A DNA stretch of 20,000 nucleotides, from the IMG/VR virus record IMGVR_UViG_3300049433_000291. The stretch is one strand, 5' to 3'. Shown here piece by piece: positions 3 to 15,373 of the stretch. Below the pieces are notes generated by a model. It searched no databases. It saw only the letters and a list, made by a program, of their open reading frames with translations, and was not told the DNA's origin. The position numbers and the translations under genes are program-made. This DNA comes from an uncultured virus (IMG/VR IMGVR_UViG_3300049433_000291). Its lineage: Duplodnaviria > Heunggongvirae > Uroviricota > Caudoviricetes. The stretch's first letter is position 1; the number at the start of each line of letters is the position of its first letter.

Positions 3-1616
3 TCGGGTGGCATCAGCGAGTTTTTTGGACAAGGTAATCCGTTTTTTGCCGTGTATTGTCCCTGCAAAGAAGGACAACCGAACAAGACAGAGCTTCTCCT
101 GCTTGATAAGTACTCCACACTCATTATTAGTGAACACATGATGAACCTGTCGATTGCCGACAGGTTAGTTGACTCATTGCGGATACAGTTCCCGAAAGAT
201 TTCTTTGGAAAAGAGGAGTGTACTAGCTTCGTCAACAAAACAGTGAGACTCTTTGATAGGGCGTCAATCGCGTCTTCGATTGAGCAGGTTAACTCCGTGG
301 TGGACCTCGAAACAAACCCGCTTGATTGGCTTCAAGAACTTTTCATAGCCGAGAATAGAAAAGTTAGCAATTATTTGACGCGAAACGCCTTGAGCGGCGG
401 TGGCGCGGTCTACGAAGGCGCCACCAGCGGTTACCACGACTTCATGCTACCTTTGATGAAGTTGGCGCAAGGATTCGCCAGTCTAAATTCCGCCTCAATA
501 TATGTGCTACTTGATGATGCGGGCAAGTTGACTAAAGAGCAGCAGAGCATCGTCAACACCTGGATTGCAAATAGAGATCAGTCAGCGATCTGTTTGAAAG
601 TATCAGCGCTCCGCGAAGAATACAAGACCTTCCTAACCCGTGACGGTGGGCTAATTGAGAAGCCACACGATTACTCCAAGGTTGATGTCGAAGAACTCTA
701 CACGCAATCCAAAGAAGATTACGCTCAAAAAGTAAAACTCATTGCAAATCGGCGTCTAGAATTATCAGAGGTCCCAACAAAGGACATTGAGCAGTTTCTA
801 CCGTCGGATCCGACCGAAGAAGCTCTGTTAGACGACTTCAGGAAGGAGACCGCAGCACAGTGGGAAATCGAGGGTCAGCCTGGGCGCCAGCGAGACTACG
901 TGACCAGATATGCGACCGCAAGACTATTTCAGCATTTAAGAGCCAGTAGACAGCGCAAGAGTTATGCGGGCTTCCAGAATATTGTGCATTTGTCCTCCGG
1001 CGTTGTGAGAGATTTTTTGGAGCCGTGTTATCTGATGTTCGATGAGTATGTCAGCGGAGATCGGGACCCGAGCACAGTTTCAGTCATCCCTCCCGCGTTT
1101 CAGAATGAGGTACTGTTCAGATATTCGGAAGAACTGATCTTAGGAAAGTTCGAGGATATTCGAAAGAACCTACCCCCGGAGAAATGGCCCCAGGTTGATG
1201 CGCTAAAAACGCTGTTGGAATCGCTCGGACGACTCTTTTACGAGAGGCTCCATGATCCGGAAGCGCGAGAGGCGCGGTTGTTCTCTTTTACTGTAAGAGG
1301 CCAGGTTACTGCTGACGTGGCAGATGTGCTCGACTTAGGTGTTCGTCATCGCTACTTTCAGCTTCGCACGTATAGCACGAAGGAAGGCGGCGGTCGGGAG
1401 AGCTGGTACATCCTCAACCGGTGGCTGTGCCCAGCTTACAAGCTCGACCCGACCGGCTTTGAGGGAAGGATCTCTCTTACACCAAGATTCATTCAGTTAG
1501 CCACCGAAGATCCCGATAGATTTGTCCGACTAAGACTGAAGCAAATGGACGATGACTCGCCGGACAAGGATAGACAGCCCACTTTGTTTTCGCTTGAAGA
1601 GGAGGCGGTGGGATGA
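3..1616 (+). CDS. P-loop ATPase, STAND/ORC-Cdc6-like (copy 1; 5' end truncated by the window edge)
   Basis: The frame is open from position 3 (SGGISEFFGQGNPFFAVYCP...), so the GTG at 51 is not the true start. Walker B-like YVLLDD is at ~501-518. It is a clear paralog of the 2913-5390 ATPase (DYVTRYATARLFQHL..YAGFQNIVHLSSGVVRDFLEPC vs DYVSKYGSARFFQTL..YAGLEYITMVSSGIYRQFLEIC). Walker A presumably lies upstream of the window. Confidence 0.85.
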   Translation, partial: SGGISEFFGQGNPFFAVYCPCKEGQPNKTELLLLDKYSTLIISEHMMNLSIADRLVDSLRIQFPKDFFGKEECTSFVNKTVRLFDRASIASSIEQVNSVVDLETNPLDWLQELFIAENRKVSNYLTRNALSGGGAVYEGATSGYHDFMLPLMKLAQGFASLNSASIYVLLDDAGKLTKEQQSIVNTWIANRDQSAICLKVSALREEYKTFLTRDGGLIEKPHDYSKVDVEELYTQSKEDYAQKVKLIANRRLELSEVPTKDIEQFLPSDPTEEALLDDFRKETAAQWEIEGQPGRQRDYVTRYATARLFQHLRASRQRKSYAGFQNIVHLSSGVVRDFLEPCYLMFDEYVSGDRDPSTVSVIPPAFQNEVLFRYSEELILGKFEDIRKNLPPEKWPQVDALKTLLESLGRLFYERLHDPEAREARLFSFTVRGQVTADVADVLDLGVRHRYFQLRTYSTKEGGGRESWYILNRWLCPAYKLDPTGFEGRISLTPRFIQLATEDPDRFVRLRLKQMDDDSPDKDRQPTLFSLEEEAVG

Positions 1617-2635
1617 GACATTGGTCCGTAGACGAACTGACGAACCACGGCGGTCTTCAGACGATACGAGAAGGAAGCGTCCCAGACGACATGTTTCTCG
1701 TTTCTGCCAGTTATGAAGCTAGAACCCTTACCGTGGCGCAGTCTCTCGCCGGTGACTATAGGGCCACACGAGGAGTTATATATGTAAACCAAGAGCTGTT
1801 GAGAGATCCTCAGAGCGATAGAGTTAGGCCACACCTTGATGAGCTAGTACATCTTTTGCTCTCTCACTGTGAGTCAATTGATCAAGCGGAGGGCAGTTGG
1901 CTTGATCCGAAGCGCCAACTCTTAGCCCTGCGAAGGGCATTAGTTACGTCCGCATACGAGCCGATGCAGGATGTTGCTGTGACCGTTGACACCACAACCT
2001 TCAATCGAGAATCGCTCTTGACTGCTATGGCCCTACTCCGAAATCATTTTCCCGCTTCGAAAATAAGGGTAGCCTATACGTCACCTCAAAAGCACGGGGA
2101 ATGGCTGAGCCAAGGTTACCGAAGTGTGCGAAATGTAATGAGCTTCGCTGGAATTCAGCAATCCAGCCGTCCCACACTTCTGGTTGTTTTATCTGGTTTT
2201 GAACCTGAGCGGACTTTGAAACTCATAGAGGAGCATGAGCCATCGAAAGTCTTACTCGGAATTGGGGATCCTCCGACAAATCAGCAATTCTTGCAAAGGA
2301 ATCTCGATGAACAAAAGCTAATACTGGCTAGACAGGAGGTTGAGAAGTTCAGTTTTCCAGCAAGTGACATGCTGCTCTGTCGCGACTCGTTGGAAACTCT
2401 TTTGCAAGCGTACTTGAAGAGTCACAACATCGCTTTAGCTCCAATGAGCACCAAACTTTCTACGCTTGCTGTCTTCCTGGTCGCCGAGGAGCATCCGGAG
2501 ATTCAGGTTACTTACTGTGTTCCTGGAGAATACAACACCGATAGCTATTCTTCGGGCGCGGACAGCGTATTCGTTGGTGAACTGCCACAACGCTCGGTAG
2601 AAGCGAAAGCTTTGGGCGTTCCGGATACTAGTTGA
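1613..2635 (+). CDS. ATPase-partner protein, predicted tandem Rossmann/CARF-like alpha/beta fold (copy 1)
   Basis: 340 aa with an ATGA overlap on the ATPase stop. Motifs FLVSASYEAR, VTVDTTTFNR, LVVLSGFEPER, IALAPMSTKL. Paralog of 5387-6364. The CDS is confident; the fold call is inference. Confidence 0.75.
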   Translation: MRHWSVDELTNHGGLQTIREGSVPDDMFLVSASYEARTLTVAQSLAGDYRATRGVIYVNQELLRDPQSDRVRPHLDELVHLLLSHCESIDQAEGSWLDPKRQLLALRRALVTSAYEPMQDVAVTVDTTTFNRESLLTAMALLRNHFPASKIRVAYTSPQKHGEWLSQGYRSVRNVMSFAGIQQSSRPTLLVVLSGFEPERTLKLIEEHEPSKVLLGIGDPPTNQQFLQRNLDEQKLILARQEVEKFSFPASDMLLCRDSLETLLQAYLKSHNIALAPMSTKLSTLAVFLVAEEHPEIQVTYCVPGEYNTDSYSSGADSVFVGELPQRSVEAKALGVPDTS

Positions 2636-2912
2636 ATTCAGCGTCTTAACAAGGATTGTACGTAGCGTTGTACTTCGACTCGATGAGCGCGAGCTGATAG
2701 GAGATCATTTACTAGTCCCTTGGTCTTGGTTCAAACCTGAGGGCCAACGGCGGCGACACATCCAAGAGAATTGTTAGCTCCTTCATCAGTAAGTGTCGGT
2801 CACGCACTCCATTTCGAGGCCCAATTCAACCTCTCGCAGCATTCAAGACAGTCGGGGGGGGCAATACACGACTGGGAACGGACCTACTTGCCCGATGAGG
2901 AGAAAACCTGGT

Positions 2913-5390
2913 ATGGCAATCCCATTCCTCACCGTTGCGATCGGTTATATGGCGGGTCTCGGCAAAGGCCTAGCCGTTAACTTGGCAGCAGCAGAGATCT
3001 ACGCAAGATTCAAGAAAGAGGACTTATTCTCATTGTTGGAGCGCTGCCTTGAGGATGCTATGAAAAACCGATCTCATATCCTCGATAGCGCAGCAGTCTT
3101 ACCAGGAGGATCTGTTCAAGGTGCGTACTTGGATAAAGAAAGGCTCCGGGATTACTTGGCAAAGAACCAGTCTATCGTCCCATCGCCCTCTGAATCAGGG
3201 GCGGAGAACCCGTGGCGAGAATATCTGAAACCCTTTGAGGAAATCATTGTTATTCCCACTTTCAAAGCCGAAAGCGAACGCCTAAATTCCATACAGGATG
3301 TGCTCGATGAAGCTTCGCGACTCTTTACCGCACGAGTTCCTTATCAGCAGCCTGCATTCCAAGAACTGTTGCTGAAATTCCAGGAGAAACACAGCGACGA
3401 ACACAAGGAAATCATCAAGAAGATCGATGCATTAAAACCAAGTGGTCCTTCTCTATTAATCGAAGTCGGGCATGATGAAAACCCAATCGCGGAGATTACA
3501 GTGAGCGCATGGGTCAATCCTTTTTCGATCGTCGCGGCTGACGATTTGGAGCTCACCAATCCAGAACACGTCAGACAGATTAGGAACCTTTTCATTGCCA
3601 GATACACTGACCTGCCAACAATCCAAAAACACTACAATACTATCCTCGAAGGCCAGCGCGGTACTGGGAAGACAATGATCATGAAGTATTTAGCCTTCGA
3701 AACTCAAATCCTAGAATGGGTTGAGAAGAAGAAACGGCAAGGTGCCGAATTCTTATCGTCCCCGGAGAATTTCATAGGTGTCTACTCAAAGCTCGGTCAG
3801 GGTGTTTTTGACAAGACTGACTTTGAGGCTATTAGCGACAAGACCAGGCGTGATCGCATCTTTGAACATCGACTCACGCTACAATTACTGTCTGACGTTC
3901 TCGATACGATGAAAGCCGTATACCAGCACTTCCCTCCTAGCACCGAAGACGTAAGAAGAATTAAGCAAGCACTGAACTCCCTTTTGAAAACCAACGGGAC
4001 CATAGATGTATGTCTGACGGCGAGTGATTTGATTAGAGCGGCTCAAGATCATATTTCCTTCATTTCAGTCCAAGAGGTAGACGAACACTTGGGTTCGGTG
4101 TCACCAGGTGGTGGAACCAGCTCGACAGACTTTAATCCAAGCCTGACACTGTCCGGACAACTGATACCCTTTCTTAAGTTGCTTCGACAATCGTGCAGTA
4201 CAAGCGTGCCATTCTTCCTCATGCTAGATGATTTTGATGTACTCGAGCCATTTCAGCAGGAGAGAGTTTTCAAAACGGCTTCGTCTAGGCAATTGGGCAC
4301 AGTCTGTTTCAAGTTCGGTGTCATGATTCATGGCAAAAAGGTTTTGCTATCGGGTGAGGGTAGAACGTTTCGCAATAGCGATGACTTTAACCGGATTGAC
4401 CTTGACTGGACCGAGGGAGGGCTCCATGAGAATTACCAGAAATCGCTTATTGATATTGCCCATGCTCGTTTGGAAGCTGCCGGTTCAGGTTGGAACGCCC
4501 AACTGTCATCGTTGCTCCCAGAATGGCAGCGCGGTAATGAGATATTTCTCGAGGTCAGAACAGTAATGGAGTCTGAATGGGAAACGGACGAAAAGCCAAC
4601 CGACTCCAAGAGTGATTACGTTTCAAAATATGGAAGCGCCAGATTCTTCCAGACGCTTAGAAAAAGAAAAATCAGGATGCGATATGCAGGCCTCGAATAC
4701 ATTACGATGGTCTCTTCGGGTATCTATCGTCAGTTTTTGGAAATCTGCAAGCTGATTTTTGATCGTGCTCACGATGAAGGCTGGATACCAGAAAACGGCG
4801 GAGTTCGCGCTGAGATTCAGGATATAGCAGTGCGCGAGTATTCTGAGGAAATGATCCAACAGTTTTCACGCACATCCGGGGACGCTCAATCTCTGCTTCA
4901 CGGCAATATTGAGGTCACTTCCTCACATATGACTACACTTATTGATAGCCTTTGTGACGTTTTCTATTCGCGGCTTCATACTCCGGTTGGTGTACTGGGG
5001 AGTGGCGAGCCTGAAATCATTTGCGTGGCAGTGCGTGATGATCTTGGTCGGTGCCCGGAGGCTGACATCCTATTAAAGATTGCTGTCAGAGAATCAATCC
5101 TTCATCGGTTTCAATACGCGCCAAAAACTTCGGGCGGTCCGCCTCTTCCGGCTTTCATGTTGAATAGAAGATTAGGTCCACGCCGGGACTTAAGCATCAG
5201 GCGTATGCAAGGGCGAATTGAGGTTGAAGCTGCTGACATCATTTTAGCGGCGAAAGACCGTAGAGAGTTTTTTCAGAAGATGCAGGGAAAAAAGGTGAAT
5301 GCTGACCGAACGAGCATAGACGATACATCGCAGCAGGTTGGCCTTCCGTTAGGAAAAGTAATGGGAGAGTCTGAACAGACTGAGCAATGA
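2913..5390 (+). CDS. P-loop ATPase, STAND/ORC-Cdc6-like, with a ~200-aa N-terminal helical extension (copy 2)
   Basis: Walker A GQRGTGKT at ~3651-3674, Walker B FFLMLDD at ~4212-4232, and an NPF motif before the P-loop. Start moved from the ORF-track GTG 2793 to the in-frame ATG 2913, which has GAGGAG at 2897-2902. Confidence 0.88.
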   Translation: MAIPFLTVAIGYMAGLGKGLAVNLAAAEIYARFKKEDLFSLLERCLEDAMKNRSHILDSAAVLPGGSVQGAYLDKERLRDYLAKNQSIVPSPSESGAENPWREYLKPFEEIIVIPTFKAESERLNSIQDVLDEASRLFTARVPYQQPAFQELLLKFQEKHSDEHKEIIKKIDALKPSGPSLLIEVGHDENPIAEITVSAWVNPFSIVAADDLELTNPEHVRQIRNLFIARYTDLPTIQKHYNTILEGQRGTGKTMIMKYLAFETQILEWVEKKKRQGAEFLSSPENFIGVYSKLGQGVFDKTDFEAISDKTRRDRIFEHRLTLQLLSDVLDTMKAVYQHFPPSTEDVRRIKQALNSLLKTNGTIDVCLTASDLIRAAQDHISFISVQEVDEHLGSVSPGGGTSSTDFNPSLTLSGQLIPFLKLLRQSCSTSVPFFLMLDDFDVLEPFQQERVFKTASSRQLGTVCFKFGVMIHGKKVLLSGEGRTFRNSDDFNRIDLDWTEGGLHENYQKSLIDIAHARLEAAGSGWNAQLSSLLPEWQRGNEIFLEVRTVMESEWETDEKPTDSKSDYVSKYGSARFFQTLRKRKIRMRYAGLEYITMVSSGIYRQFLEICKLIFDRAHDEGWIPENGGVRAEIQDIAVREYSEEMIQQFSRTSGDAQSLLHGNIEVTSSHMTTLIDSLCDVFYSRLHTPVGVLGSGEPEIICVAVRDDLGRCPEADILLKIAVRESILHRFQYAPKTSGGPPLPAFMLNRRLGPRRDLSIRRMQGRIEVEAADIILAAKDRREFFQKMQGKKVNADRTSIDDTSQQVGLPLGKVMGESEQTEQ

Positions 5391-6364
5391 TGGAGTCAAT
5401 AAGCGAAGTGCTTGGTCAAATTGAGCCGACCGCTGGTGATAAGGATTCAGTCCTCATAACGTGCGCTAGCTTTGAGGAGCGTTCAACTGCGGTGGCGCAA
5501 CGACTCGCTCAGAATTATGCCGCGGAACATACCTTCATTTTTCGGTCAACCGAATATGGGGACTTGGGGGACTCACCTGAATACTTTCAATTTATCGAAA
5601 GCAAAATGACTAGCATTAGTAAGAACAAGCCTAGTGTGATCAAATTCTCCATTGATCACTCGATCCCTTCCATGGCCCAGTTTGAAGGCTCCTACCGGGA
5701 ACTCAAAGCGACCTCGTTGGTTAGCAACGTCTCAGTGGACGTTACAACATTTCCACGGCAGGAATTGTTAATGCTGCTGCGCGTTTTGGACAGCCAATCC
5801 GATCTTGCCTCCACGCGGCTCTTCTACGGAGAGCCGCTTAGGTATTGCACCGAGGACGCGGGCGGATGGCTCACTAGAGGAGTCAAATCTGTGCGCCCCG
5901 TTCCTGGCTTCGGTGGAGTTCAGCCCCCGAACAAGAAGAAGAATCTGCTGATAATGTTTCTGGGCCATGAGGATGAGCGAGCTGCAATTACATGGAAGCG
6001 ACATCAGCCGAGAAAAACTATTGCTATTGTCCCGGATCCGAACTATCGGAAGGAGATGAACGGCATAGTTGAAAGAACGCATCAGCCGCTGTTTACGAAA
6101 CTGAGCACAACGGAATTCTATCCGGCAGTTCCCGCCCGAGGGATAGTGGAGTCCGAGAATGCGGTGTTGAGGATATGGGAGGAGCATCATGAATCCTACT
6201 ACATAGTTGTGGCTCCTCTCGGGACTAAGTTACAGACGTTGGGTATCTATAGAGCGGTGCGGCGAAGACCGGATATTCAGATCACGTATGCGATACCTTC
6301 AATCTATAACTACCGGAATTATTCTGTTGGGGTAAACCGCATTTGGGAGATCCATTGGAACTAA
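5387..6364 (+). CDS. ATPase-partner protein, predicted tandem Rossmann/CARF-like alpha/beta fold (copy 2)
   Basis: 325 aa with an ATGA overlap on the ATPase stop. Motifs LITCASFEER, VSVDVTTFPR, LIMFLGHEDER, IVVAPLGTKL, PDIQITY..P..YN...YS.G, all shared with 1613-2635. Confidence 0.75.
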   Translation: MMESISEVLGQIEPTAGDKDSVLITCASFEERSTAVAQRLAQNYAAEHTFIFRSTEYGDLGDSPEYFQFIESKMTSISKNKPSVIKFSIDHSIPSMAQFEGSYRELKATSLVSNVSVDVTTFPRQELLMLLRVLDSQSDLASTRLFYGEPLRYCTEDAGGWLTRGVKSVRPVPGFGGVQPPNKKKNLLIMFLGHEDERAAITWKRHQPRKTIAIVPDPNYRKEMNGIVERTHQPLFTKLSTTEFYPAVPARGIVESENAVLRIWEEHHESYYIVVAPLGTKLQTLGIYRAVRRRPDIQITYAIPSIYNYRNYSVGVNRIWEIHWN

Positions 6365-6440
6365 GAACGACTCTTTTCAACGACTGTTTAGAGTCAACCG
6401 TTCTAATCGGATTACGAAAGCTAAACTGTTCGGGACAAGT

Positions 6441-8231
6441 ATGTCGAACGTAACTTATGTCACATCCTTACTGTCGCGGCAATATAAGGATCCGTCCCTT
6501 AATAACCATCGTGATCCACTAGATGAAATAGTATTTATTCTCCTTTCCGAAAAGACCGACGAAGCTAAGTACACAACCGCCTTCAGAAATTTGAAGGCTC
6601 GCTTTCCTCGCTGGACAGGAGTTCTCAGCGCGCCCGTGCGCGAGATCAAGACGGCGATCGAGACCGCCGGAATGGGTAACCGACGCGCAAATCTCCTTCG
6701 TCGACTATTTAAAGCCATTGTTGAAAGGTTTGGCGCTCTGGATCTTTCAATGCTTGCAGGAATGTCTTTGGAAGAAGCTGAGGCCGAACTGATTCAACTG
6801 CCAGGGATCGGACGCAAGGCCGCGCGATGTGTATTGCTGTATTGCTTCGATTTTCCTGCCTTACCTGTTGACGTGCACACTTATAGATTAGCTATTAGGT
6901 TAGGCATCCTTTCACGTCGGGTTTCTTATGAACAATCCCACGAAGCGTTGCCGCGCCTCGTTCCATCTCATTTGCGTCGGCGTTTCCACGTAAATGCAGT
7001 AGCTCATGGACGCGCCCGGTGCTTTGCCCGCAAGCCCGACTGTAATGGCTGTCCGCTGGCAGAACACTGCTCTTATCCGGAGGCGGTTAGACCTTTGCGG
7101 ATCGTCGCGAGGCCTGAGCCACTTGCCATAGATCTTTTCGCTGGTGGTGGCGGATTAAGCCTAGGGTTTGAAAAGGCGGGTTTCCGCATCGTGCAATCGG
7201 TCGAGAGTAATTCAAGAGCCGCAGCTACATATGCACACAATAATCCTGACGTGGATCTTATTGAAAGAGATATAAGGCAGATCAATCCGCGCACCTGTTT
7301 AGCACGCCTCGGACTTAGGCCTGGCGACCTGACTGCCTTAATCGGGGGGATTCCTTGTCAGGGATTTTCAGAATCAAACCGCCGCACGCGGAATTCAGCC
7401 AACCCTAATAACCATCTTTATAAGCGATTTATTCGGTTCTTGGATGTGCTTCGGCCAGCATGGTTCGTGATAGAGAATGTCGCCGGCCTGCGAACGATGG
7501 AGCGCGGCTTGATTCTGCAGCGAATTATTCGCGAATGCAAAGCACTTGGCTATGAGGTTAATTGGCGGGAACTCAATGCCGCCGATTTTGGAGTCCCTCA
7601 GGTTCGTCGCCGCATATTTATCATTGGAAATCGGTTTGGCTTGCCGATTCCGTTTCCGGAGGCGACGCATGGTCCAGGATGTCAACTGCGAGTAACGGTG
7701 CGTAAGGCGCTTGGCGATTTGCCCGTTCTTAAAAATGGTGCTTCCAAAGATTATCGGCCGTACGGAAAAACTGGCCGAGGACTGACTAAGTACCAGCGCA
7801 TGATGCGGGCTTCGAGGAACGGGACCGGCGAAGTTCAGGGGAATCTGGTTACACGAAGCACAGACGTAATTATCAAGCGTTATCGGCACATACGGGCTGG
7901 GGGGAATTGGGAGGACATACCAACTGAACTGATGATCAATTATGAGGATCCTTCGAGATGTCACACTGGTATTTATCATCGATTAGAGTGGGACAAACCA
8001 GCCAAAGTTATTGGAAATTTTCGAAAGAACATGCTTATACACCCTCAACAGCATCGAGGCTTGTCGGTAAGAGAGGCCGCACGTCTTCAATCGTTTCCGG
8101 ACGACTATGAGTTCCTGGACTCGATCGGATTCCAGCAACAACAGGTGGCCGATGCCGTACCGCCGCTCTTGGCGGAAGCGGTTGCCAAGCACATCATACG
8201 AGCTGATCGAACAATGGGCCCCAAACGATGA
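6441..8231 (+). CDS. Fusion of an HhH-GPD (endonuclease III-like, [4Fe-4S]) DNA glycosylase and a DNA (cytosine-5)-methyltransferase
   Basis: N-terminal ~212 aa: HhH LPGIGRKAARCVL, catalytic Asp in PVDVH, FeS motif CFARKPDCNGCPLAEHC (C-x6-C-x2-C-x5-C). C-terminal part: MTase motif I DLFAGGGG, IV GGIPCQGFS, VI ENV, VIII PQVRRRIF, IX REAARLQSFPD, X ADAVPP. Single uninterrupted 596-aa frame. Confidence 0.93.
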   Translation: MSNVTYVTSLLSRQYKDPSLNNHRDPLDEIVFILLSEKTDEAKYTTAFRNLKARFPRWTGVLSAPVREIKTAIETAGMGNRRANLLRRLFKAIVERFGALDLSMLAGMSLEEAEAELIQLPGIGRKAARCVLLYCFDFPALPVDVHTYRLAIRLGILSRRVSYEQSHEALPRLVPSHLRRRFHVNAVAHGRARCFARKPDCNGCPLAEHCSYPEAVRPLRIVARPEPLAIDLFAGGGGLSLGFEKAGFRIVQSVESNSRAAATYAHNNPDVDLIERDIRQINPRTCLARLGLRPGDLTALIGGIPCQGFSESNRRTRNSANPNNHLYKRFIRFLDVLRPAWFVIENVAGLRTMERGLILQRIIRECKALGYEVNWRELNAADFGVPQVRRRIFIIGNRFGLPIPFPEATHGPGCQLRVTVRKALGDLPVLKNGASKDYRPYGKTGRGLTKYQRMMRASRNGTGEVQGNLVTRSTDVIIKRYRHIRAGGNWEDIPTELMINYEDPSRCHTGIYHRLEWDKPAKVIGNFRKNMLIHPQQHRGLSVREAARLQSFPDDYEFLDSIGFQQQQVADAVPPLLAEAVAKHIIRADRTMGPKR

Positions 8232-8339
8232 ATGATTAGCCAAGCTTCAAGAACTTTTCGGCTTCTGCTTGATTGCGCTCTTCTCTGCGTTTATCTGTTT
8301 CGAGTGTTTTGATTCTTCGGTAACGGTGGCTGTGTACAT

Positions 8340-8828
8340 TTATTGAAAATCCGTTTCAAGGCCCGGGGGAATTGGGAATTCGTTAAGGCATGAGCGACAT
8401 TCGACACGTTCATTGGTTTCTTCATCTTCGTCGTACACTTGGTAGAGGCCATTTATCGAAAGTACGCCGTCTTTGAGGCCTTCTATCTCGCGCCAGGTGG
8501 TGTGATTAGCGAGATATCGAAAGCCTTCTCCGTGTTCGGTCGGATCGTTGCCTTTATAACCGCACGTTGGGCAAATCAGTTCGGTTGGTTGAGTAATACC
8601 AAGGTCGGTGGTGAGGGAGTTTGATTTGATTTGCTCCCATTCGGTTTGAGCACGATCAAAGAGTTCTCGTAGCTCTTCAGTTTGCAAGTCCATTGACTGA
8701 CAAATTGCGGTCCAGGCATTTTCATCTATAGCTCTGGCAGCCATTATTTCGGCGAGTAAGCGTGGGAACTGAATGTCATTGCGTTGCCATGGCGAGGAGC
8801 TGAGATCGGGAAGTGTGCTTGTTTGCAT
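8340..8828 (-). CDS. Hypothetical phage/MGE-type protein with a C-terminal Zn-ribbon
   Basis: 162 aa with ATG start. The N-terminal W..NDIQFPRLLAEI...SMDL...ELFDRAQ segment is typical of phage/ICE hypotheticals (recalled, unverified). CPTC...CRSC cysteine pairs. Confidence 0.7.
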   Translation of the reverse strand: MQTSTLPDLSSSPWQRNDIQFPRLLAEIMAARAIDENAWTAICQSMDLQTEELRELFDRAQTEWEQIKSNSLTTDLGITQPTELICPTCGYKGNDPTEHGEGFRYLANHTTWREIEGLKDGVLSINGLYQVYDEDEETNERVECRSCLNEFPIPPGLETDFQ

Positions 8829-8896
8829 TGCAGTTTCTTTCTGGGTTTGAGGGGTAAGGAGAATTGGCGCATCGTGAGGTTAGTTGAGCGTGTGGC

Positions 8897-9583
8897 TCAT
8901 ACCAATGGTTCGATGTCAGCTATTCCATAGTCTTTAGGGTCAAATGATGGGTAGATGATCGCGTCTGCGTCGTGGTCGCCAGGTTCGCTTAATGGGAGGC
9001 GTAGTCCTTCGGTTTCATTATTGGTGACGAGCCTAACGAGATCTATAGCCTTTTCAATTGCGCTGGTGCCGCTTTTGGCCTCGATGCTGAGATAGAGCGG
9101 ACAACGATCTATTTCTACGCGGTAACTTGCTGGCTCGTCGTTTTCGATTTCTGGTTTTTGTTGTTTCTCATTCGTTGGCGGCGGATTTATTGAGTGGAGT
9201 GTGGTTCGCGCGAGCTCTGCGCAGTCCTGGCCGGAGAGTTGACTCATTAAATGTCGAAGCGGATTGTCTTGGAGATTACCGTTGTTAAGATCCCCATAGT
9301 TAGCAATCTGCTCCAAGGTCTTGATCGCTGGTTCATAAGCATTACAGGCGTGGACGATAAAGTCGGCGTCGGCTTTGAGCTTTGTTCGTATCTCTGTGGC
9401 TACATGAGGTAGTAATTTGCCGTCTTCGTATTCGCCTACGACTGCGAGAACCACGGGTCCTAAGCCGATGATGTGGCCTGTGCTTCCGATGATGTCAAAA
9501 GCGTCGAGGTGGGGGTCGTCCTGATGCGGACGAACGGCGTATGGTGGTGCGGTGTGCTCTGTGTGCTCTAATGCGCTGTTCAT
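8897..9583 (-). CDS. Hypothetical phage/MGE-type protein
   Basis: 228 aa, co-oriented with its neighbours. The HTAPPY...ADFIVHACNAYE pattern resembles phage HTPGPW/ANARLIAA-type proteins. Confidence 0.7.
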   Translation of the reverse strand: MNSALEHTEHTAPPYAVRPHQDDPHLDAFDIIGSTGHIIGLGPVVLAVVGEYEDGKLLPHVATEIRTKLKADADFIVHACNAYEPAIKTLEQIANYGDLNNGNLQDNPLRHLMSQLSGQDCAELARTTLHSINPPPTNEKQQKPEIENDEPASYRVEIDRCPLYLSIEAKSGTSAIEKAIDLVRLVTNNETEGLRLPLSEPGDHDADAIIYPSFDPKDYGIADIEPLV

Positions 9584-9692
9584 CGGTTTGCCTGCATTCT
9601 GGGTTGAAGGGTTTGGGTTTAATTGTTGAACAGCCAGTTAGAGTTGTGCTTGAAGCGGCCCGTACGGGTTGGCTTGGACCGTGAACGTATCC

Positions 9693-10568
9693 TTACGCGG
9701 CGGCTTGACGCTTTCGACGTGTCTTAGGTGTGCCGTTTTCAGGTGCGACGAGTGTTAGCGGGGAAGCAGTTGGTTCTTGCTCTACACGGTTTGCTTGTAC
9801 CTTCAGGCTTGCTTGCAGTGCGGTCATAATGTCGATTACGGCAGCTGGCTTTCGTACTTCGCCGGTGGTGGTGATCGTTTCTCCGGCGACTTTGGCATCG
9901 AGCATTTCTTTCAAGGCAGCGTGAAAGTGGTCCGTGGTGTCGATTTGGTCAAACGTGGTGACCATCTGCTCGACGAGCGTTGTGGCCAATTGCAGTTCGT
10001 TGTCTTGCGGCGTGGCTTGACTGGAAATTCCCGGAACATCGACCACACTGCGTACCTCGTGGCGGTAGTGCAGCTTTTGGATCATGAGGCCATCGCCGTT
10101 GGGGGAAATGGTAATCAGGTCTTCACGCTCCCGTAAAATTACCTTGCCCACTCCAATCCTTCCGCTTCGCTTCATAACTTCGCGTAGCAGGGCATAGGAT
10201 CGTTCGGCTGCCTGGCCGTTGGGGGCCGCGAAGTAAGAGGCGTCGAAGTAGGTGGTCGGAATTTCTTCCGGTTTGATGAAGCCGATGATTTCGATTGCTT
10301 CACTTGATTCTGGCGTGATCTTGGCGATCTCTTCCGGAGCGACTAGCACGTATTTTTCTTTTTCGTGTTGGTAGCCTTTGACGATCTCGTCGTTGGTTAC
10401 GGTGACGTCGCATTTCTTGCATTGTTTCTTCTGGCCGATGGGTCCCAGGCAGGCGCCAGCGTGGAGTTGGTTGAAGGAGATCTTCTCGCTGGTTTCAATG
10501 GCGTTGAAAACCTTAATCGGGATCGAGACGAGGGAAAACGTTATGCTGCCTTTCCAGATGCTGCGCAT
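9693..10568 (-). CDS. ku: Ku DNA end-binding protein (prokaryotic NHEJ Ku)
   Basis: Canonical N-terminus MRSIWKGSITFSLVSIPIK, IVKGY, YFDASYF, YALLREVM, VIDIMTALQASL and a short basic tail. The RBS AGGAG lies upstream (ctcct at ~10575-10579). Confidence 0.95.
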   Translation of the reverse strand: MRSIWKGSITFSLVSIPIKVFNAIETSEKISFNQLHAGACLGPIGQKKQCKKCDVTVTNDEIVKGYQHEKEKYVLVAPEEIAKITPESSEAIEIIGFIKPEEIPTTYFDASYFAAPNGQAAERSYALLREVMKRSGRIGVGKVILREREDLITISPNGDGLMIQKLHYRHEVRSVVDVPGISSQATPQDNELQLATTLVEQMVTTFDQIDTTDHFHAALKEMLDAKVAGETITTTGEVRKPAAVIDIMTALQASLKVQANRVEQEPTASPLTLVAPENGTPKTRRKRQAAA

Positions 10569-10602
10569 GGTGTGCTCCTAATTTAGTTAGTTAATTTGTT
10601 GC

Positions 10603-11403
10603 TCACTGCCCTTTGTATTTCAATTGCGAGATCAGGCAATGTTCCGGTTGGAGGTCGTCGCGGATGGCAACCATCCGAGGCTGGTAAACGTGATTTGAAT
10701 CGCGAAACGCGTGTAGATAGCGAACGTCTATTACCATTCCGTCCTTAACGCGAAAGTGCTTGCTGCGAATTTTGACGTTGCCACACTCGATTAGCTGGCC
10801 CTTGTCATTGAAGAGACCCAATGCAACGGAATCTTTTTCGTTCTTTTTAGTGAGTACAAACGAGCTGACTACCGTGAACTTGTGTTTGAATTGGTCAGGC
10901 TGTCGATCGGTGCGATAGGGAGAGTCAATTTTCTTCAGTACGATGCCTTCGAGGTTACGCGCATGAACTTCTTGCAATAGCGCGATTTTGCCTGCCTGTT
11001 CAAATTCAGTCCTTGCAATCTGAATCGATCTCGCTCTGGCAGCCTGGAGTGTTGCCAGTAGTTGGGTGTTTCGGTCAAGGAATTTCCAGGGGCGAATGTC
11101 TGTGCCGTTGATTTCTAGGATGTCGAATGCGTGGAGAGTTTTGGTTTCCCGGATCCACTCGCCATCGAACATGATGGGAGCGATGGGCTCGAATTGTCTT
11201 GCTTCGGCGATGATGTTTGGAGAGACGCTGCAAGTGAGGCCTTCTCGGTTGTGTGCCGTAACGGAAGAACGCTCGATGTGCAGCATGATGCGCTTGCCGT
11301 CGAATTTTTGCTGGACCGCATAGTTCGGATCGAGAAGTCTGGCGGCGGCTTCATTCCCGTCGTCGATGGCGGTTAGAAGTTGACAGGCTGCTTTGTGCTT
11401 CAC
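10603..11403 (-). CDS. Minimal ATP-dependent DNA ligase (adenylation domain plus OB domain)
   Basis: Nucleotidyltransferase motifs I QKFDG, III FDGE, IIIa AFDIL, IV EGIVLK, V FKHK, followed by a C-terminal OB-like region with QPR. 266 aa, with no polymerase or phosphoesterase domains. Confidence 0.88.
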   Translation of the reverse strand: MKHKAACQLLTAIDDGNEAAARLLDPNYAVQQKFDGKRIMLHIERSSVTAHNREGLTCSVSPNIIAEARQFEPIAPIMFDGEWIRETKTLHAFDILEINGTDIRPWKFLDRNTQLLATLQAARARSIQIARTEFEQAGKIALLQEVHARNLEGIVLKKIDSPYRTDRQPDQFKHKFTVVSSFVLTKKNEKDSVALGLFNDKGQLIECGNVKIRSKHFRVKDGMVIDVRYLHAFRDSNHVYQPRMVAIRDDLQPEHCLISQLKYKGQ

Positions 11404-11576
11404 TGTGCGATTGAGCTATTGACTGGTCTTTGCCTTGAGTAGAACTTTTTTGCGGGAGTGCAATGGGTTGCGTTCCGCTTATTTATCCCGGTAGCCAGGT
11501 TAGAAAGATGCGGAAGGCAGAGTAATGCCAGCGGCATCTCCAAGGAGGAGATGCCGGTTGCTGTCGTGCTGTGCAG

Positions 11577-12131
11577 TTAGCTCTGCGGACTGTAGGGATG
11601 ATTGTTTGCGCAGTAAATAGTAGTCTTGGCGGGTTCGCAGAGTTCGAGAATGTCTTCCTCACTGGCTGGTTGCGGGCCGCCGTCGTAGTCAATGATGCGG
11701 CCGTCGCTGTTTACTTCGACTGCGTAGAGGTTGATTTTGACGGAGGCGTGGAGTTCGGCGCCGCAATCCGGGCAGGTGCGCGCGGGGCCGGATGTTTTGG
11801 TAGAGCTGCTCTTGGATTGTCTGGAAAGTTCTGAGGCAAAGACTGGAGTTCCGTTTTCAATGGTGCAGTCTACCTGTTCGTCTTCTTCTTTCTCCCAGGA
11901 GTCACAGGTATAAGGACCTTCGCGGTCATCGCCACTTTCGTAGTTAAGATTGTCGAGCTTGTTTTTTTCAAGGAGTTCGGAGACGATTTCTTCTGCGGAG
12001 GAGGAGTCGGTAGTGCTGACTGCGACATCGGCGTATTCGGAGAGATCGCGAGCGACACGGACTACATAGGTTTTCTCCTCGTTTTCGTCCGGGGTGCTAG
12101 CTGAAGCTTTGTTATCTTTGGCTCGTTTCAT
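11577..12131 (-). CDS. Hypothetical acidic protein (DpnD/PcfM-like N-terminal motif and a C-terminal Zn-ribbon)
   Basis: KTYVVRVARDLSEYADVAVSTTDSSSAEEIV resembles the small MGE DpnD/PcfM-type motif. CPDC...C..NH near the C-terminus. Confidence 0.65.
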   Translation of the reverse strand: MKRAKDNKASASTPDENEEKTYVVRVARDLSEYADVAVSTTDSSSAEEIVSELLEKNKLDNLNYESGDDREGPYTCDSWEKEEDEQVDCTIENGTPVFASELSRQSKSSSTKTSGPARTCPDCGAELHASVKINLYAVEVNSDGRIIDYDGGPQPASEEDILELCEPAKTTIYCANNHPYSPQS

Positions 12132-12227
12132 GGTATGGGGGTAGTTTGGGTCATGCGCGTTGCTGCTGTTTGCAGGGCTCTTTATTTGCAGTTCATTGAT
12201 TGCCGCTGTTGTTTGACCATATTTGAT

Positions 12228-12473
12228 GGCGGGAAATGGGTCGTGCTCGGCTTAGTCTGAAGGCGGCGCATTTGGGCGCTTAATAGTACTTACGGTTGAG
12301 TGAGCTAAAGCGACTGTCGAACGTCGTAAACTAAAATCCTTGGTCCAGGGAGGCCACCATGTACTCGGACTGCCAACCTTTCTGAAGGGCCCCCGCAAGG
12401 GTGGGGAATGCGTCGCTTTTGGCTTAGGGCCGGAGGCGGCCCATTTCGGCGTTTAGAAGTAAGGGCGGTTGAG
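12228..12473. repeat. Degenerate direct repeat, ~73 bp x2 (12228-12300 and 12400-12473)
   Basis: Cores ggcttag-tctgaaggcggcgcatttgggcgcttaatagtacttacggttgag (12249-12300) and ggcttagggccggaggcggcccatttcggcgtttagaagtaagggcggttgag (12421-12473) match at 40/53 by hand. Similarity extends about 20 bp further left. Confidence 0.8.
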
Positions 12474-13193
12474 CCAGTAGCCTTCGACGGAGCGCCAGGT
12501 CCCGGCGGCGCGTTCGACTAATTGGATGGCTGCTTTCATCGCCTTCATCCTGGTCCATTCTCGCTTGATGAGCATGGCGGTAATTGTTTCGAGGGTGGCG
12601 CTTTCGTTTTGTTCCTCGAGGCAATTTTCGGTAAATAGCAAGTTAACGAATTCGGTGGTAAATCCTTGTTCTCGTTTGCGGCTCTTGTCTCCGAGAATAC
12701 CTTGCACGGCAGTGAAGATATCGGCACGCGCGGCCGCGCGCTGATTATCAAGCTCTGCGCTTAGCCGTCGCTGTCTTTCTTCTTCGCTTGGTACGGTGGG
12801 AATCTCTGCGTGAGTTCTAACTAATGTGGCTATCTCCGCCGCTTCAAGGCGCAGCAGTTCCTGTCCCATGGGAGTTGTGCAGATAACGTGTGGTGCGGGA
12901 TCGGTGTTGCAATGGATGTGAAGGTGCGCGTTGCTGGCCCAGCAATTACCCAAGGCCAGGCTGAGTTCTTCATCAGAGGCGCCGACTACAAGTTCTTTTT
13001 CCCAGCGACGGTGCTTTACGAATCCCTGGATGACCTGGGTGGCAAGTTCGTCGCGGGTTATCTCGATGTTGAGGGATTCGCTGTTGGCGTCGGTGCCTGT
13101 AGGCTCGGTTGTTGGGCTCGGGGCTTTAGGTTCATCGACAATAGTGGTCGTTGGTGTGAAGAGGGAAACTTGATGATGGTCAGGGCGTTTCAT
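12453..13193 (-). CDS. Hypothetical protein (~246 aa)
   Basis: The start is probably ATG 13193 (MKRPDHHQVSLF), which makes an ATGA overlap with the stop of 13190-13420. The ORF-track extension to 13316 overlaps that better-supported gene. Confidence 0.7.
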   Translation of the reverse strand: MKRPDHHQVSLFTPTTTIVDEPKAPSPTTEPTGTDANSESLNIEITRDELATQVIQGFVKHRRWEKELVVGASDEELSLALGNCWASNAHLHIHCNTDPAPHVICTTPMGQELLRLEAAEIATLVRTHAEIPTVPSEEERQRRLSAELDNQRAAARADIFTAVQGILGDKSRKREQGFTTEFVNLLFTENCLEEQNESATLETITAMLIKREWTRMKAMKAAIQLVERAAGTWRSVEGYWLNRPYF

Positions 13194-13420
13194 TTCGTGG
13201 AAGTTCGATTCGCGCGTTCTTGTTCTATTGCGTCTTCCGAACACGAGGCGTGAACATATCCTTCGTGGTTGTAAAAGCGACGATCGGAGCCGATTGGCTT
13301 TTCGCAGTAGCGGCAAACGGTGTGTGCGATAGTTCGCGATCCTGCGCAGTCAGTGTGGTGACATGGTTCGGCGCATGGTCCGTATTTTGTGCCGGGTGCT
13401 GAGAGTACGCCTGCTGCCAT
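13190..13420 (-). CDS. Small Cys/His-rich putative Zn-binding protein (76 aa)
   Basis: Strong RBS GAGGAG upstream. C-x3-C-x4-C, C-x2-C and H-x2-C ligand pattern. Coupled to the downstream gene. Confidence 0.72.
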   Translation of the reverse strand: MAAGVLSAPGTKYGPCAEPCHHTDCAGSRTIAHTVCRYCEKPIGSDRRFYNHEGYVHASCSEDAIEQERANRTSTK

Positions 13421-13440
13421 TGTAGTTAAGCTCCTCTTGC

Positions 13441-13947
13441 TCAGTTTGTGTTTGGTGCTTCAAGCTGATGGGCAGGTTCGTGTCCGGAGTCCTGGGGGGA
13501 AAGTATGGAGGTGCTTTGCTCTTCAGATTCGCCGGCCGCTCCGTTCGTTTGGAAAGTATCGGTTGTGTATTCGAAGCGGGCGACAGCCTGGCAGAGGGCA
13601 GCGTAAGCGGCGACCGGATCCGTCGAGGCTATAGTGATCGTCACGTTATTGAATTGAACTTCCTCGATCGGGAGTGTAATTTCCGATAGATGCGGCAGGG
13701 CGGCCCTTGCGATCGGAGTTTGGACCAGATCGTCAATTTTCCAGTCGACGTGTCCTTCCTGGCTGACGGTACAGAGAAGCCGCGCATCTTCCGGAGGTTG
13801 CTCGCCTTCGATCAGCGTGGCCCAGATCATTTGGTCAAAGAGCTTCCCCTTGGTTTCATAAACGAATAGGAAGGCGCGTTCGCGGGTCGCGCGTTGGATG
13901 GCTTCGTTGACGACTGTTTGGCGGATTTCGGTTGTGGTGACGGTCAT
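13441..13947 (-). CDS. Hypothetical protein (168 aa)
   Basis: ATG with AAGGA upstream. Tightly packed and co-oriented with its neighbours. Confidence 0.7.
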   Translation of the reverse strand: MTVTTTEIRQTVVNEAIQRATRERAFLFVYETKGKLFDQMIWATLIEGEQPPEDARLLCTVSQEGHVDWKIDDLVQTPIARAALPHLSEITLPIEEVQFNNVTITIASTDPVAAYAALCQAVARFEYTTDTFQTNGAAGESEEQSTSILSPQDSGHEPAHQLEAPNTN

Positions 13948-13961
13948 GAGTGTTCCTTAAG

Positions 13962-14540
13962 CTATTCGCCGGCGAGTAGTGTGATCTGGTTTTCGTCAAT
14001 TGGGCGTGTGAGATTTTTGGTTGCCGGCGCCGGAACTGCGGCCGGTATTCTAACAGGCTGGCCGATGATGCTGATCGGATTGCGTTTGCGCGGACGGAAC
14101 GCGTAGAGCTGGCGGTGAACTTCGCGAACGGTAAGGGTGGTTACTGCTGATCCGCCGATTATGGTCTCAGCGAGGTATTCAAGCTTGCGTCCTCGTTTGA
14201 AGGCCTTTTCTAGTATTGCTGGTTCTCCGGGTGTCCAACCGGCTTCAATGAGCGCATCGTGACGGCGATAGCATTGGGCGTTGTAGACGAGTAAGGAGAG
14301 CATTGAATTCTTTTCGGTGATGGAGCCGACTTGGAATTGTTGCTCGAACCAGGCTTGAAATTGCGCGTTGTATTGAAAGCCTGCTATTCGCTCGCGTTCA
14401 TTTAGCAATGAGCATAGCCAGGTGCTTTTGATCCGGAACTTGTTTAGGTTGTCAGGCAAGGAGCTTTCTAGTTGGCCAAGCAGTGCTAGAGTTTGTTCCT
14501 GGTCAAGGATCAAAAGTGGTGTAGGCTGGAAGTCGCTCAT
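13962..14540 (-). CDS. Hypothetical protein (192 aa)
   Basis: ATG start and short intergenic gaps in the co-oriented cluster. Confidence 0.7.
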   Translation of the reverse strand: MSDFQPTPLLILDQEQTLALLGQLESSLPDNLNKFRIKSTWLCSLLNERERIAGFQYNAQFQAWFEQQFQVGSITEKNSMLSLLVYNAQCYRRHDALIEAGWTPGEPAILEKAFKRGRKLEYLAETIIGGSAVTTLTVREVHRQLYAFRPRKRNPISIIGQPVRIPAAVPAPATKNLTRPIDENQITLLAGE

Positions 14541-14572
14541 GGTGATTGTTTAGCTACGAACGAGCTTGTTCT

Positions 14573-15205
14573 TCATGCTGCCTTTCTTTCCAACTCGAGG
14601 CAGCAATTAGCGCAGCGGATACGGTTTGGATTTAGTGGGCTTGGCTCAACTTCCTGGTGTGCGGTGTCGATTCCGCATTCTTCCTGCATTTCATCGAGCG
14701 CCTTGATGCAAGTGCCGAGCAGAAGTTCGAGATAGCGTTTACGGTCGTCCGCCACGTGTGGGTGCTCCGTAAGTCCGAATAGTGGACCAGCAGAGTCCAT
14801 TAGCGCCCACTCTGCTTGCCGGTGGAGATGCTCGGCTCTCAACGTTGGAGAGTGGCCTTTTGGAAGATCGGTATAACCATGGGCACGATGGGCGGCATCA
14901 CACGCGTCGTAGTACGCGCGGAGTTTGGCCTTAATCTCATCGGACTCGTCCTCGCCGTGAAGTAAGCAAAAGTCAACGTCGTCAGGCGAAGGGATAGGCT
15001 TACCGGCCAACTTCTCGCCGCGACGGGTATCGAGGCGTTCTACGGAGTTACCCTCGTAGACAAAATTGAAACTGTCGAATATCGGTTTGATGTAGGCGGC
15101 TTCGTAGATTTTGATTGTATCGGCTGCCGCTTGGGTTTCGCAGACAGCCAGGGCCAGTCTCGCGTTATCTCTGCTCCACTTTTTGAATTCATCAAGGGTT
15201 GGCAT
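14573..15205 (-). CDS. Hypothetical protein (~210 aa)
   Basis: The start is probably ATG 15205 (MPTLDEFKKW) after a purine-rich leader, rather than TTG 15256. C-terminal CANC. Confidence 0.7.
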   Translation of the reverse strand: MPTLDEFKKWSRDNARLALAVCETQAAADTIKIYEAAYIKPIFDSFNFVYEGNSVERLDTRRGEKLAGKPIPSPDDVDFCLLHGEDESDEIKAKLRAYYDACDAAHRAHGYTDLPKGHSPTLRAEHLHRQAEWALMDSAGPLFGLTEHPHVADDRKRYLELLLGTCIKALDEMQEECGIDTAHQEVEPSPLNPNRIRCANCCLELERKAA

Positions 15206-15373
15206 GGTCTCTCTCTTTTTTTCTTCCTTTATCGGTTGTAACAAAGGGGTTCCCAACTAAAGCTACGTCCGAATTCACAGCTCACAGCAATAATCCGACT
15301 CGATCTCCTGCAATAACTGTTCAAAGTATTGTGGTCGGTGCAATTTTACTTTTTCTAAATTCATGCGCGGTCG

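Follow-up and report, generated by a model that had tools for sequence, protein, structure and literature searches.

Deamination of 5-methylcytosine (5mC) yields thymine and thus a T:G mismatch, and that of cytosine yields U:G. A C5-cytosine methyltransferase (MTase) may be coupled to an activity that repairs the mutagenic lesions it gives rise to, a principle known from Vsr and Mig: E. coli couples Dcm with Vsr (very-short-patch repair), m5C restriction-modification systems likewise have Vsr genes that link T:G-directed repair genetically to a C5-MTase, and M.MthTI has the Mig.MthI gene next to it on a plasmid. Mig.MthI (1kea) and Pa-Mig are T:G/U:G glycosylases of the HhH-GPD/[4Fe-4S] kind that counter 5mC deamination, and passages of two papers describe Mig enzymes as having evolved against this process (PMC1636421, PMC2714593).

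Members of the same superfamily are also found with MTases in plants, where DEMETER and ROS1, the counterparts of MET1/DNMT1, are bifunctional Nth-superfamily glycosylases with a Lys and a [4Fe-4S] cluster. In ROS1, the aromatic pocket residues F589 and Y1028 favour 5mC. The glycosylase domain of DEMETER/ROS1 is discontinuous, with a long insertion. EndoIII-1 of D. radiodurans (DrEndoIII-1; DR2438; 4unf; NF053634) is a stand-alone enzyme that is weak on thymine glycol and mostly a monofunctional glycosylase, and its true physiological substrate is therefore unsettled. Finally, there are cassettes that combine HD, ORC/Cdc6-like, CARF6-like and MTase genes (PF24391, PF24389; PADLOC CARF6), for which our literature searches found no experimental work.

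A glycosylase and a methyltransferase in one reading frame

The window, that is, the whole stretch of 20,000 nucleotides of uncultured-virus DNA analysed here, carries an open reading frame at 6441..8231 (plus strand, as are all features below) that translates into 596 residues plus a stop, with 0 internal stops. Pfam HhH-GPD, the EndoIII Fe-S motif and DNA_methylase all fall in this one frame, which bears out the in-frame fusion of an EndoIII-type glycosylase to a C5-MTase proposed by the sequence-only reading, and the catalytic residues named there (GIGRK, VDVH, four Cys, PCQ and ENV) are all at verified codons. Among 119 non-self proteins listed, 79 (P0002-P0080) align with the query at 55-79% identity over 85% or more of its length, a count of cluster representatives among the matches listed, and 269 representatives match at an E value of 1e-30 or lower. 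A contig of 64.7 kb from run X1, perhaps the window's own source, crosses 6300-8300 with 0 differences, and a 151-nt contig of run X4, from soil and a different study, matches the junction (7021-7171) equally exactly. Hence, the stop or frameshift near 7080-7120 that had been raised as a potential flaw is not there, and an assembly artefact is ruled out, because the 79 relatives span both domains at the above coverage and the junction is the same in the independent soil run. The short inter-domain linker (residues 211-228; 7071..7124), delimited by alignment and AlphaFold2, has an invariant R224 and a near-invariant P225 in a 49-sequence alignment, and the AlphaFold2 model is confident for both halves (mean pLDDT 86.8, pTM 0.87).

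Public records annotate the fusion only as "DNA cytosine methyltransferase", and our literature searches on the architecture found no paper describing a glycosylase-MTase fusion; a 2011 review of DNA methylation systems by Iyer, Abhiman and Aravind may mention glycosylase-methylase links. Phage records gave only distant Nth/MutY-like matches, at no more than 31% identity.

The EndoIII-like HhH-GPD/[4Fe-4S] domain occupies residues 1-212 (6441..7076), with Pfam matches to HhH-GPD (PF00730) at residues 34-175 (38.3 bits, cut-off 26.2) and to the EndoIII Fe-S motif at residues 194-210 (21.2 bits, cut-off 20.5); the Vsr domain PF03852 had no Pfam match in the fusion protein. Its helix-hairpin-helix, LPGIGRKAARCV (6783..6842, by Pfam and alignment), contains the Schiff-base Lys K126 (GIGRK; codon 6816-6818), which aligns with K120 of E. 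coli Nth, as the catalytic D144 (VDVH; 6870..6872) does with D138. The [4Fe-4S] loop, C194-x6-C201-x2-C204-x5-C210, lies at 7020..7070. Published work on E. coli EndoIII reports that S39 and D44 are required for glycosylase activity, and alignment with this enzyme places S36 and E41 (6546..6563) at these positions, the former as the Ser39 equivalent and the latter as a conservative change from Asp44. D144 and the four Cys are invariant in the 49 aligned sequences, K126 is kept in 46 (the other three have Lys at 125), S36 in 47 and E41 in 46, and by this conservation the catalytic residues are evidently under selection.

The closest solved structure is DrEndoIII-1 (4unf/8a5c; E 1e-28), followed by E. 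coli Nth (1.7e-20), ROS1 (4e-15) and Mig.MthI (1e-11). The Lys/Asp/four-Cys active site is common to the window and DrEndoIII-1, and a basic residue replaces the Gln of Nth in both (K38 in the window, R61 in DrEndoIII-1), although the window's domain is not an equivalog of it (NF053634 at 111.5 bits, below its 400-bit cut-off); PRK10702 likewise reached 69.3 bits against a cut-off of 405. The differences from Mig lie in the active site itself: the general-acid Glu (Mig E42, MutY E37) is absent, with I33 in that column, K126 stands for Y126, a Tyr being present in only one of the 49 family members (P0078), and H146 stands where Mig-type proteins have Asn. That is, the active site is by alignment Nth-type (Lys126) and not Mig-type, which is its unusual feature; the Lys of Nth and ROS1 and the Tyr of Mig at this position, which had been noted earlier, agree between our alignment and the passages of the papers. 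A host housekeeping Nth is ruled out as the identity of this domain, since other HhH-GPD genes, free-standing and with better scores, are present in the host genomes G001 and G002.

The C5-MTase domain (7125..8201) matches Pfam DNA_methylase (PF00145) at residues 230-586 (E 3.6e-63) and exceeds the cut-off of TIGR00675 (191.8 vs 100.65 bits). Motifs I (FxGxG; F233-G235-G237-G238), IV (PCQ; P305-C306-Q307, 7353-7361, with C306 as the nucleophile), VI (ENV; E345-N346-V347, 7473-7481), VIII (QxRxR; 7599-7613) and IX (RE; 8070-8075) are all present, with motif residues, C306 and ENV among them, invariant in the 49-sequence alignment, and the recognition region, GNFRKNML, is highly conserved. Fold and sequence are DNMT1/MET1-like, the nearest structures being DNMT1, MET1, ZMET2 and, from E. 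coli prophage CP-933R, the putative DNA modification methyltransferase 3g7u.

Partners and genomic context of the methyltransferase family

The loci compared belong to one MTase family with a common GNFRKNML recognition region and come from 80 metagenome loci ranked by whole-query similarity, a ranking that inflates the share of fusions. Vsr (PF03852) sits beside the MTase at three of these loci (L052, L063 and L071), a free-standing glycosylase that bears the E33/Y126/N146 signature of Mig at four (L047, L062, L066 and L077), and a Mig-type glycosylase is fused to the MTase at L055; a haloarchaeal pair is a further case of a Mig-type glycosylase with this family. The L047 glycosylase has Mig.MthI (1kea) as its best solved match (1e-45), the L055 domain scores 141 bits with MutY and 139 bits with Mig, and both the separate L047 protein and the fused L055 domain have the general-acid Glu. 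The Nth-type domain takes this position in the window and at L001-L005. Judged by sequence, therefore, Vsr, Mig-type and Nth-type proteins alternate in one slot beside one MTase family. Vsr is an endonuclease of unrelated fold, whereas the partner in the window is an HhH-GPD base-excision enzyme, and the linkage to a C5-MTase that characterises Mig is realised in the window by covalent fusion.

Directly upstream of the fusion gene are two pairs of ORC/Cdc6-like ATPase and CARF6-like genes. The first ATPase (3..1616; PF24389, 4.8e-67) runs off the window start and is followed by a CARF6-like gene (1613..2635; PADLOC PDLC01917, 1e-73); the second pair consists of an ATPase at 2793..5390 (PF24389, 9.7e-60), for whose approximately 250 N-terminal residues family searches gave no match, and a CARF6-like gene at 5387..6364 (PDLC01917, 1.3e-43) that stops 77 nt before the fusion gene. 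An HD-CE effector gene had no match within the window; as the first ATPase is truncated at the window's start, such a gene may lie upstream. Cassette genes are present at 46 of the 80 loci of this MTase family, and among cassette loci with a flank of 3 kb or more on one side, 28 have the MTase only and 5 have the fusion. Most cassettes thus combine a domain-free MTase with HD or TIR effectors of their own. On these counts the defence cassettes carry the glycosylase domain as an option, as one would expect if it assists in repair and is not an effector, and the DNMT1-like MTase family is, by its context, the probable modification gene of several of them. The context at L002 is Druantia-like. 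Neither the defence-cassette context nor the alternation of Mig- and Nth-type partners on one MTase family was part of the sequence-only reading.

Similar couplings recur among more distant relatives of the glycosylase. Of 25 long relatives scanned, 16 carry PF00145, 11 with the glycosylase in front of the MTase and five in the reverse order; their MTases are 28-33% identical to the window's over the full length and their glycosylase parts 36-44%. These Nth-type relatives are, on such matches, fused to unrelated C5-MTases in both domain orders. In a 301-genome sample of one phylum, a C5-MTase lies within 1.5 kb for four of the 29 best non-family matches, the two closest included, and the remaining 25 stand-alone relatives have no MTase within that distance, so the clade as a whole is not dedicated to MTases. 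A neighbour-joining tree (Biopython, without support values) distributed 30 linked tips over 21 pure groups with 16 parsimony changes, a result inflated by fragments counted as unlinked.

Candidate function and competing explanations

We consider it likely, on balance, that the fusion, taken here as the gene of a soil bacterium, is a self-marking C5-MTase with a built-in module for T:G/U:G deamination repair, the substrate being suggested by comparison. Under this hypothesis, the DNMT1-like MTase would methylate, through Cys306, a fixed target in the host DNA and may provide the modification function for the ORC/Cdc6-like ATPase and CARF-like cassette next to it; the EndoIII-type domain, about 17 residues away, would flip out a mismatched T or U, D144 and K126 would cleave the glycosidic bond and the AP site would probably also be nicked by β-elimination, after which host base-excision repair would restore C:G for re-methylation. 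Such a protein would work like Vsr beside Dcm or Mig.MthI beside its MTase, but with an Nth-type Lys site and in one polypeptide. We favor this hypothesis because Vsr, Mig-type and Nth-type proteins share one slot and Nth-type domains are fused to unrelated C5-MTases as well; the fusions in both orders, the MTase neighbours of some stand-alone relatives, the optional nature of the domain, its conserved catalytic residues, its distinctness from a housekeeping gene and the published view that Mig enzymes arose against 5mC deamination also point to repair. Three options had been left by the sequence-only reading, namely T:G repair, a 5mC writer and eraser in one chain, and a restriction glycosylase; the first has gained comparative backing from Vsr and Mig in the slot and from the accessory nature of the domain, while the other two have gained no support. 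Weighing against T:G repair are the Nth-type active site, with I33 for E42 and K126 for Y126, and a nearest solved relative, DrEndoIII-1, of unsettled substrate in a clade that is not MTase-dedicated. Among characterised bacterial enzymes of the Nth type, none is known to us to be specific for T:G.

The active-site set (S36, E41, K126, D144, H146 and four Cys) corresponds to that of Nth, and among families and structures alike EndoIII enzymes match best, one of which, DrEndoIII-1, processes thymine glycol; the domain could thus be a generic EndoIII tethered to the MTase, acting near methylated sites on oxidised or saturated pyrimidines (thymine glycol, 5-hydroxycytosine, oxidised 5mC) or as an AP-lyase, with no T:G specificity. 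We regard this as unlikely, since it explains neither the T:G enzymes Vsr and Mig in the same slot of the same MTase family nor why hosts with stand-alone Nth-like genes would need a second, MTase-fused one, and the score against the nth equivalog TIGR01083 falls far short of its cut-off (94.3 vs 211.7 bits). A role as a restriction or effector glycosylase that attacks unmethylated or foreign DNA at MTase-chosen sites, Type IIG-like but with base excision instead of cutting, would fit a gene that is always in defence contexts (ORC/CARF cassettes, the Druantia-like L002), the L047-type loci, where no recognisable nuclease was found, and a Lys-bearing bifunctional enzyme, which would nick DNA. 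Most cassettes, however, use the MTase without the domain and have HD or TIR effectors of their own, a separate 230-aa form exists that lacks a sequence-reading domain and is Mig-like, and a repair enzyme, Vsr, substitutes for it, which makes this role very unlikely.

The Lys/Asp pair also matches ROS1, which is a significant sequence match, and the partner MTase is DNMT1/MET1-like, so that the protein could be a writer and eraser of 5mC in one chain that excises 5mC like DME/ROS1 for methylation turnover or proofreading, e.g., of off-target marks. We give this very little credence: ROS1 scores well below the EndoIII enzymes (59 vs 104 bits), showing no specific affinity over Nth, the domain is continuous (212 residues aligned end to end with EndoIII-1, pLDDT mostly >90) and lacks the DML insertion, a tethered eraser would drive a futile, nick-producing cycle at protective sites, and substitution by Vsr and Mig speaks for T:G. 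That the Lys-bearing domain might, as a molecular activity, be a true 5mC (or 5mC plus T:G) glycosylase/lyase joined to a DNMT1/MET1-like methylase in one bacterial polypeptide is similarly improbable, if marginally less so; it would mean a prokaryotic writer-eraser pair that resembles the MET1-DEMETER/ROS1 logic of plants and might be its forerunner, and it would show on what class of substrate the puzzling DrEndoIII-1-like enzymes really act. Finally, HhH domains bind DNA without sequence preference and the relative DrEndoIII-3 shows no detectable activity, and hence the HhH/[4Fe-4S] domain could be a non-catalytic DNA-binding or damage-sensing module for the MTase; with D144 and a Lys at 126 or 125 in all 49 sequences and S36 and E41 each in at least 94%, this is likewise very improbable.

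Should the module act in T:G/U:G repair, the three repair solutions on one MTase family would constitute a natural experiment and would give a probable function to a widespread, atypical EndoIII-like clade that includes relatives of DrEndoIII-1. It would also mean that defence cassettes based on methylation bring along an accessory for maintaining the genome, and an Nth-type T:G/U:G glycosylase-lyase, if confirmed, would be a useful reagent. The architecture recurs in both domain orders with unrelated MTases, and its repair half is invisible to users of annotation because the records name only the methyltransferase.

Among the genes downstream of the fusion, PHROGs recognised Ku, a ligase and an integrase only.

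Integrity and spread of the fusion gene

The fusion gene (window 6441-8231, + strand) is a single, stop-free ORF of 596 aa. Its Pfam matches are HhH-GPD at residues 34-175, a C5 DNA methylase at 230-586 (E 3.6e-63) and, between them, the iron-sulfur motif of EndoIII at 194-210. The sequence-only reading had held that both domains keep their catalytic residues, and all the residues it named were found at verified codons: LPGIGRK with K126, VDVH with D144 and C194/C201/C204/C210 in the glycosylase, and P305-C306-Q307 and E345-N346-V347 in the MTase. An AlphaFold2 model (49-sequence alignment as input) reached a mean pLDDT of 86.8 and a pTM of 0.87, its sole weak stretch (506-536) lying inside the recognition region. 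All 49 aligned sequences share D144, the four Cys, C306 and ENV, and 46 of them share K126, the three exceptions (R, Q and Y) each having Lys at 125. In the fusion-family member P0078 (Thalassoglobus sp. JC818), Lys125-Tyr126 replaces Arg/Pro-Lys126; that is, Tyr occupies the Mig position and the Lys is displaced by one residue.

The window DNA comes from a soil metagenome. The same reading had raised the possibility of an artefact at the domain junction, which is ruled out by a 151-nt contig from another study (run X4) that matches window 7021-7171, junction included, with 0 differences. The whole gene is also spanned, with 0 differences, by a 64.7-kb contig from run X1, which may be where this DNA comes from, and 79 of the 119 non-self proteins listed (P0002-P0080) are fusion-wide relatives (at least 85% query coverage, 55-79% identity); these relatives and the identity in both runs rule out an assembly artefact as the origin of the fusion. 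Full-length relatives include named Planctomycetota (Thalassoglobus, Calycomorphotria). Relatives at 72-76% identity occur in two MAGs, one of Pyrinomonadaceae and one of Heliomicrobium, so the gene crosses phylum boundaries.

Defence context and repair partners of the MTase family

Two pairs of ORC/Cdc6-like ATPase (PF24389) and CARF6-like (PADLOC PDLC01917) genes lie upstream on the same strand, in tandem (window 3-6364, n=2) ahead of the one MTase; no HD-CE gene occurs within the window. About 250 N-terminal residues of the second ATPase (2793-5390) had no match in Pfam, PADLOC or PHROG, and may be a new effector domain where HD/TIR sits elsewhere.

We gathered 80 metagenome loci by MTase recognition-region patterns and supplemented them with two genome loci; the annotation came from phmmer searches with the proteins of the window and of loci L001 and L002. 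Cassette genes (HD-CE, ORC-like or CARF-like) adjoin the MTase in 46/80 loci with an MTase ORF (window counted), usually in the order MTase-HD-ORC-CARF; in L005, the place of the HD gene is taken by a TIR domain joined to the ATPase. Other systems with an MTase of the same family are PADLOC Mza (L050 and others), one built on a GHKL ATPase (L046 and others) and, in L002, a Druantia-like operon (DruE, DruK-like, DruC/G-like). The MTase therefore appears to act as a modification module that is shared promiscuously among defence systems. The glycosylase is absent beside most MTase copies (28 cassette loci MTase-only vs. 5 fused, counting only those whose flank reaches 3 kb or more on one side, with ORFs called by a simple greedy procedure and many loci stopping close to the MTase), and fusion frequencies are inflated because the 80 loci were ranked by whole-query similarity. 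In L002, the Druantia-like operon, which ends in a glycosylase-MTase fusion, is followed after ~1.6 kb by a Hachiman pair (HamA/HamB, 11335-15625), with one opposite-strand gene (9774-10937) in between; the region is a typical defence island.

Pfam was run on 58 small unassigned ORFs neighbouring the family's MTases. L052 and L063 have Vsr (PF03852) directly ahead of the MTase, L071 has it in divergent orientation, and in L013 a weak HhH-GPD gene lies directly upstream. A separate 230-aa glycosylase is found just downstream in L047, L062, L066 and L077, and one is fused to the MTase in L055; all five, like the MTase-adjacent glycosylase of a Halobaculum plasmid, have Glu33, Tyr126 and Asn146 in the active-site columns, which is the Mig/MutY signature (E42 and Y126 in Mig.MthI; PMC2714593). 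Sequence searches bear this out: for the L047 enzyme the best solved match is Mig.MthI (1kea; 1e-45, 159 bits, with MutY at 128), and against MutY/Mig the domain of L055 scores 141/139 bits. Lys126 and Asp144 are present throughout the window's family and in each of the 133 stand-alone relatives aligned, and His146 and Ser36 in most of them; E. coli Nth has the same residues in these columns. Given the Vsr matches, the Mig-signature glycosylases and the Nth-type fusions, the partner of this one MTase family is, depending on the genome, a T:G endonuclease, a Mig-type T:G/U:G glycosylase or an Nth-type domain.

Mig enzymes are described as evolved against 5mC deamination (PMC1636421). The principle of coupling a C5-MTase with repair is already known; new here are the use of an Nth-type domain, its covalent attachment and the alternation of three partners on one MTase family. 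Literature searches on glycosylase-MTase fusions found no paper describing this architecture, and public records name the protein as a methyltransferase only.

In L047, L066 and L077, the MTase and Mig-type glycosylase pair is followed by an HTH_17 protein and a conserved convergent protein pair without known family (~260 aa and ~820 aa; L047:8245-11532, with equivalents in the other two), which may supply restriction in a system not yet described. Thymidylate synthase genes repeatedly adjoin the MTase or the cassette: ThyX in five loci (beside the MTase itself in L006:7875-8219, L029:2730-3554, L032:1859-2590 and L049:992-1618; also L005:3194-4873) and a ThyA-like/pterin-binding fusion in one (L001:2650-4071). 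Together with Vsr and the glycosylases, these genes point to a thymine/uracil-centred accessory set.

Affinities of the two halves and proposed role

Among solved structures, the glycosylase half is nearest to D. radiodurans EndoIII-1 (4unf/8a5c, ~1e-28), followed by E. coli Nth (1.7e-20), ROS1 (4e-15), Mig.MthI (1e-11) and MutY (~5e-6). NCBIfam points the same way, but because its scores (NF053634, DR2438 type, 111.5 bits; nth TIGR01083, 94.3) are far under the equivalog cut-offs, this half belongs to the EndoIII family without being an ortholog of any characterised enzyme. DrEndoIII-1 is itself described as atypical: it acts poorly on standard substrates and mostly as a monofunctional enzyme (PMC9268735).

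A full HMMER scan with residues 1-229 returned 8760 representatives, of which 269 reach E 1e-30 or better. Most of the 8760 are stand-alone proteins ~230 aa long. A C5-MTase domain is present in 16 of the 25 long representatives scanned (glycosylase first in 11, last in 5); two others (P0239, P0269) carry a C-terminal GlnD PII-uridylyltransferase-type domain in its place. In distant full-length fusions, the MTase parts are 28-33% and the glycosylase parts 36-44% identical to the window's, and the window's MTase recognition motif is absent; the record of a 746-aa fusion from a Natronobeatus plasmid calls it simply "dcm". Within the phylum of G001, a genome carrying a relative of the fusion, 102/301 genomes have a glycosylase match at E 1e-20 or better; the unpublished G154 and G051 are counted in this tally and enter no other result. 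A C5-MTase lies within 1.5 kb, in GLY-then-MT, MT-then-GLY or divergent arrangement, in 4 of the 29 best non-family loci, the two closest among them, and in none of the other 25. By these both-order fusions, unrelated MTases and mostly unlinked stand-alone relatives, the clade is mainly a stand-alone repair family captured repeatedly by C5-MTases; our NJ tree is without support values.

The MTase half finds its closest match in the catalytic domains of eukaryotic DNMT1 (161 bits vs. 116 for M.HaeIII), and Foldseek with the whole model placed DNMT1, MET1 and ZMET2 on top. The bacterial MTase domain at window 7125-8201 is nearer to these enzymes than to any structurally solved bacterial MTase, and the sequence similarity extends past the recognition domain into the following region.

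From the domains, residues, conservation and linkage observed, we infer that the fusion is probably a defence-cassette MTase with a tethered deamination-repair glycosylase. The MTase would mark host DNA on behalf of the cassette, 5mC deamination would give rise to a T:G mismatch, the tethered EndoIII-type domain would excise the T (or U) and probably also nick the DNA as a beta-lyase via K126, and host base-excision repair would restore C:G. C5-MTases bind mismatches at their target sites tightly and can hinder repair, so a tethered glycosylase would be advantageous. Our chief doubt comes from the Nth-type active site, as we know of no characterised T:G-specific bacterial enzyme with such a site.

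Alternatively, the domain might serve generic repair of oxidised pyrimidines, which we regard as unlikely and which leaves the substitution by Vsr and Mig-type enzymes unexplained. The same substitutions find no explanation if the domain is a restriction or effector glycosylase, an improbable role, nor under two readings to which we give very little credence, namely non-catalytic DNA binding and a 5mC eraser, although the latter, if true, would be the most exciting in view of the DNMT1/MET1-like partner.

Downstream minus-strand genes

A run of genes on the - strand (window 8340-17336), over which GC skew is strongly positive, starts with two unknowns, one with a weak Zn-ribbon match, followed by Ku (9693-10568), a small ATP-dependent ligase of 266 aa (10603-11403), five unknowns, a tyrosine integrase (15374-16255) and one further unknown. 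This run may be an integrative element with its own end-joining pair.
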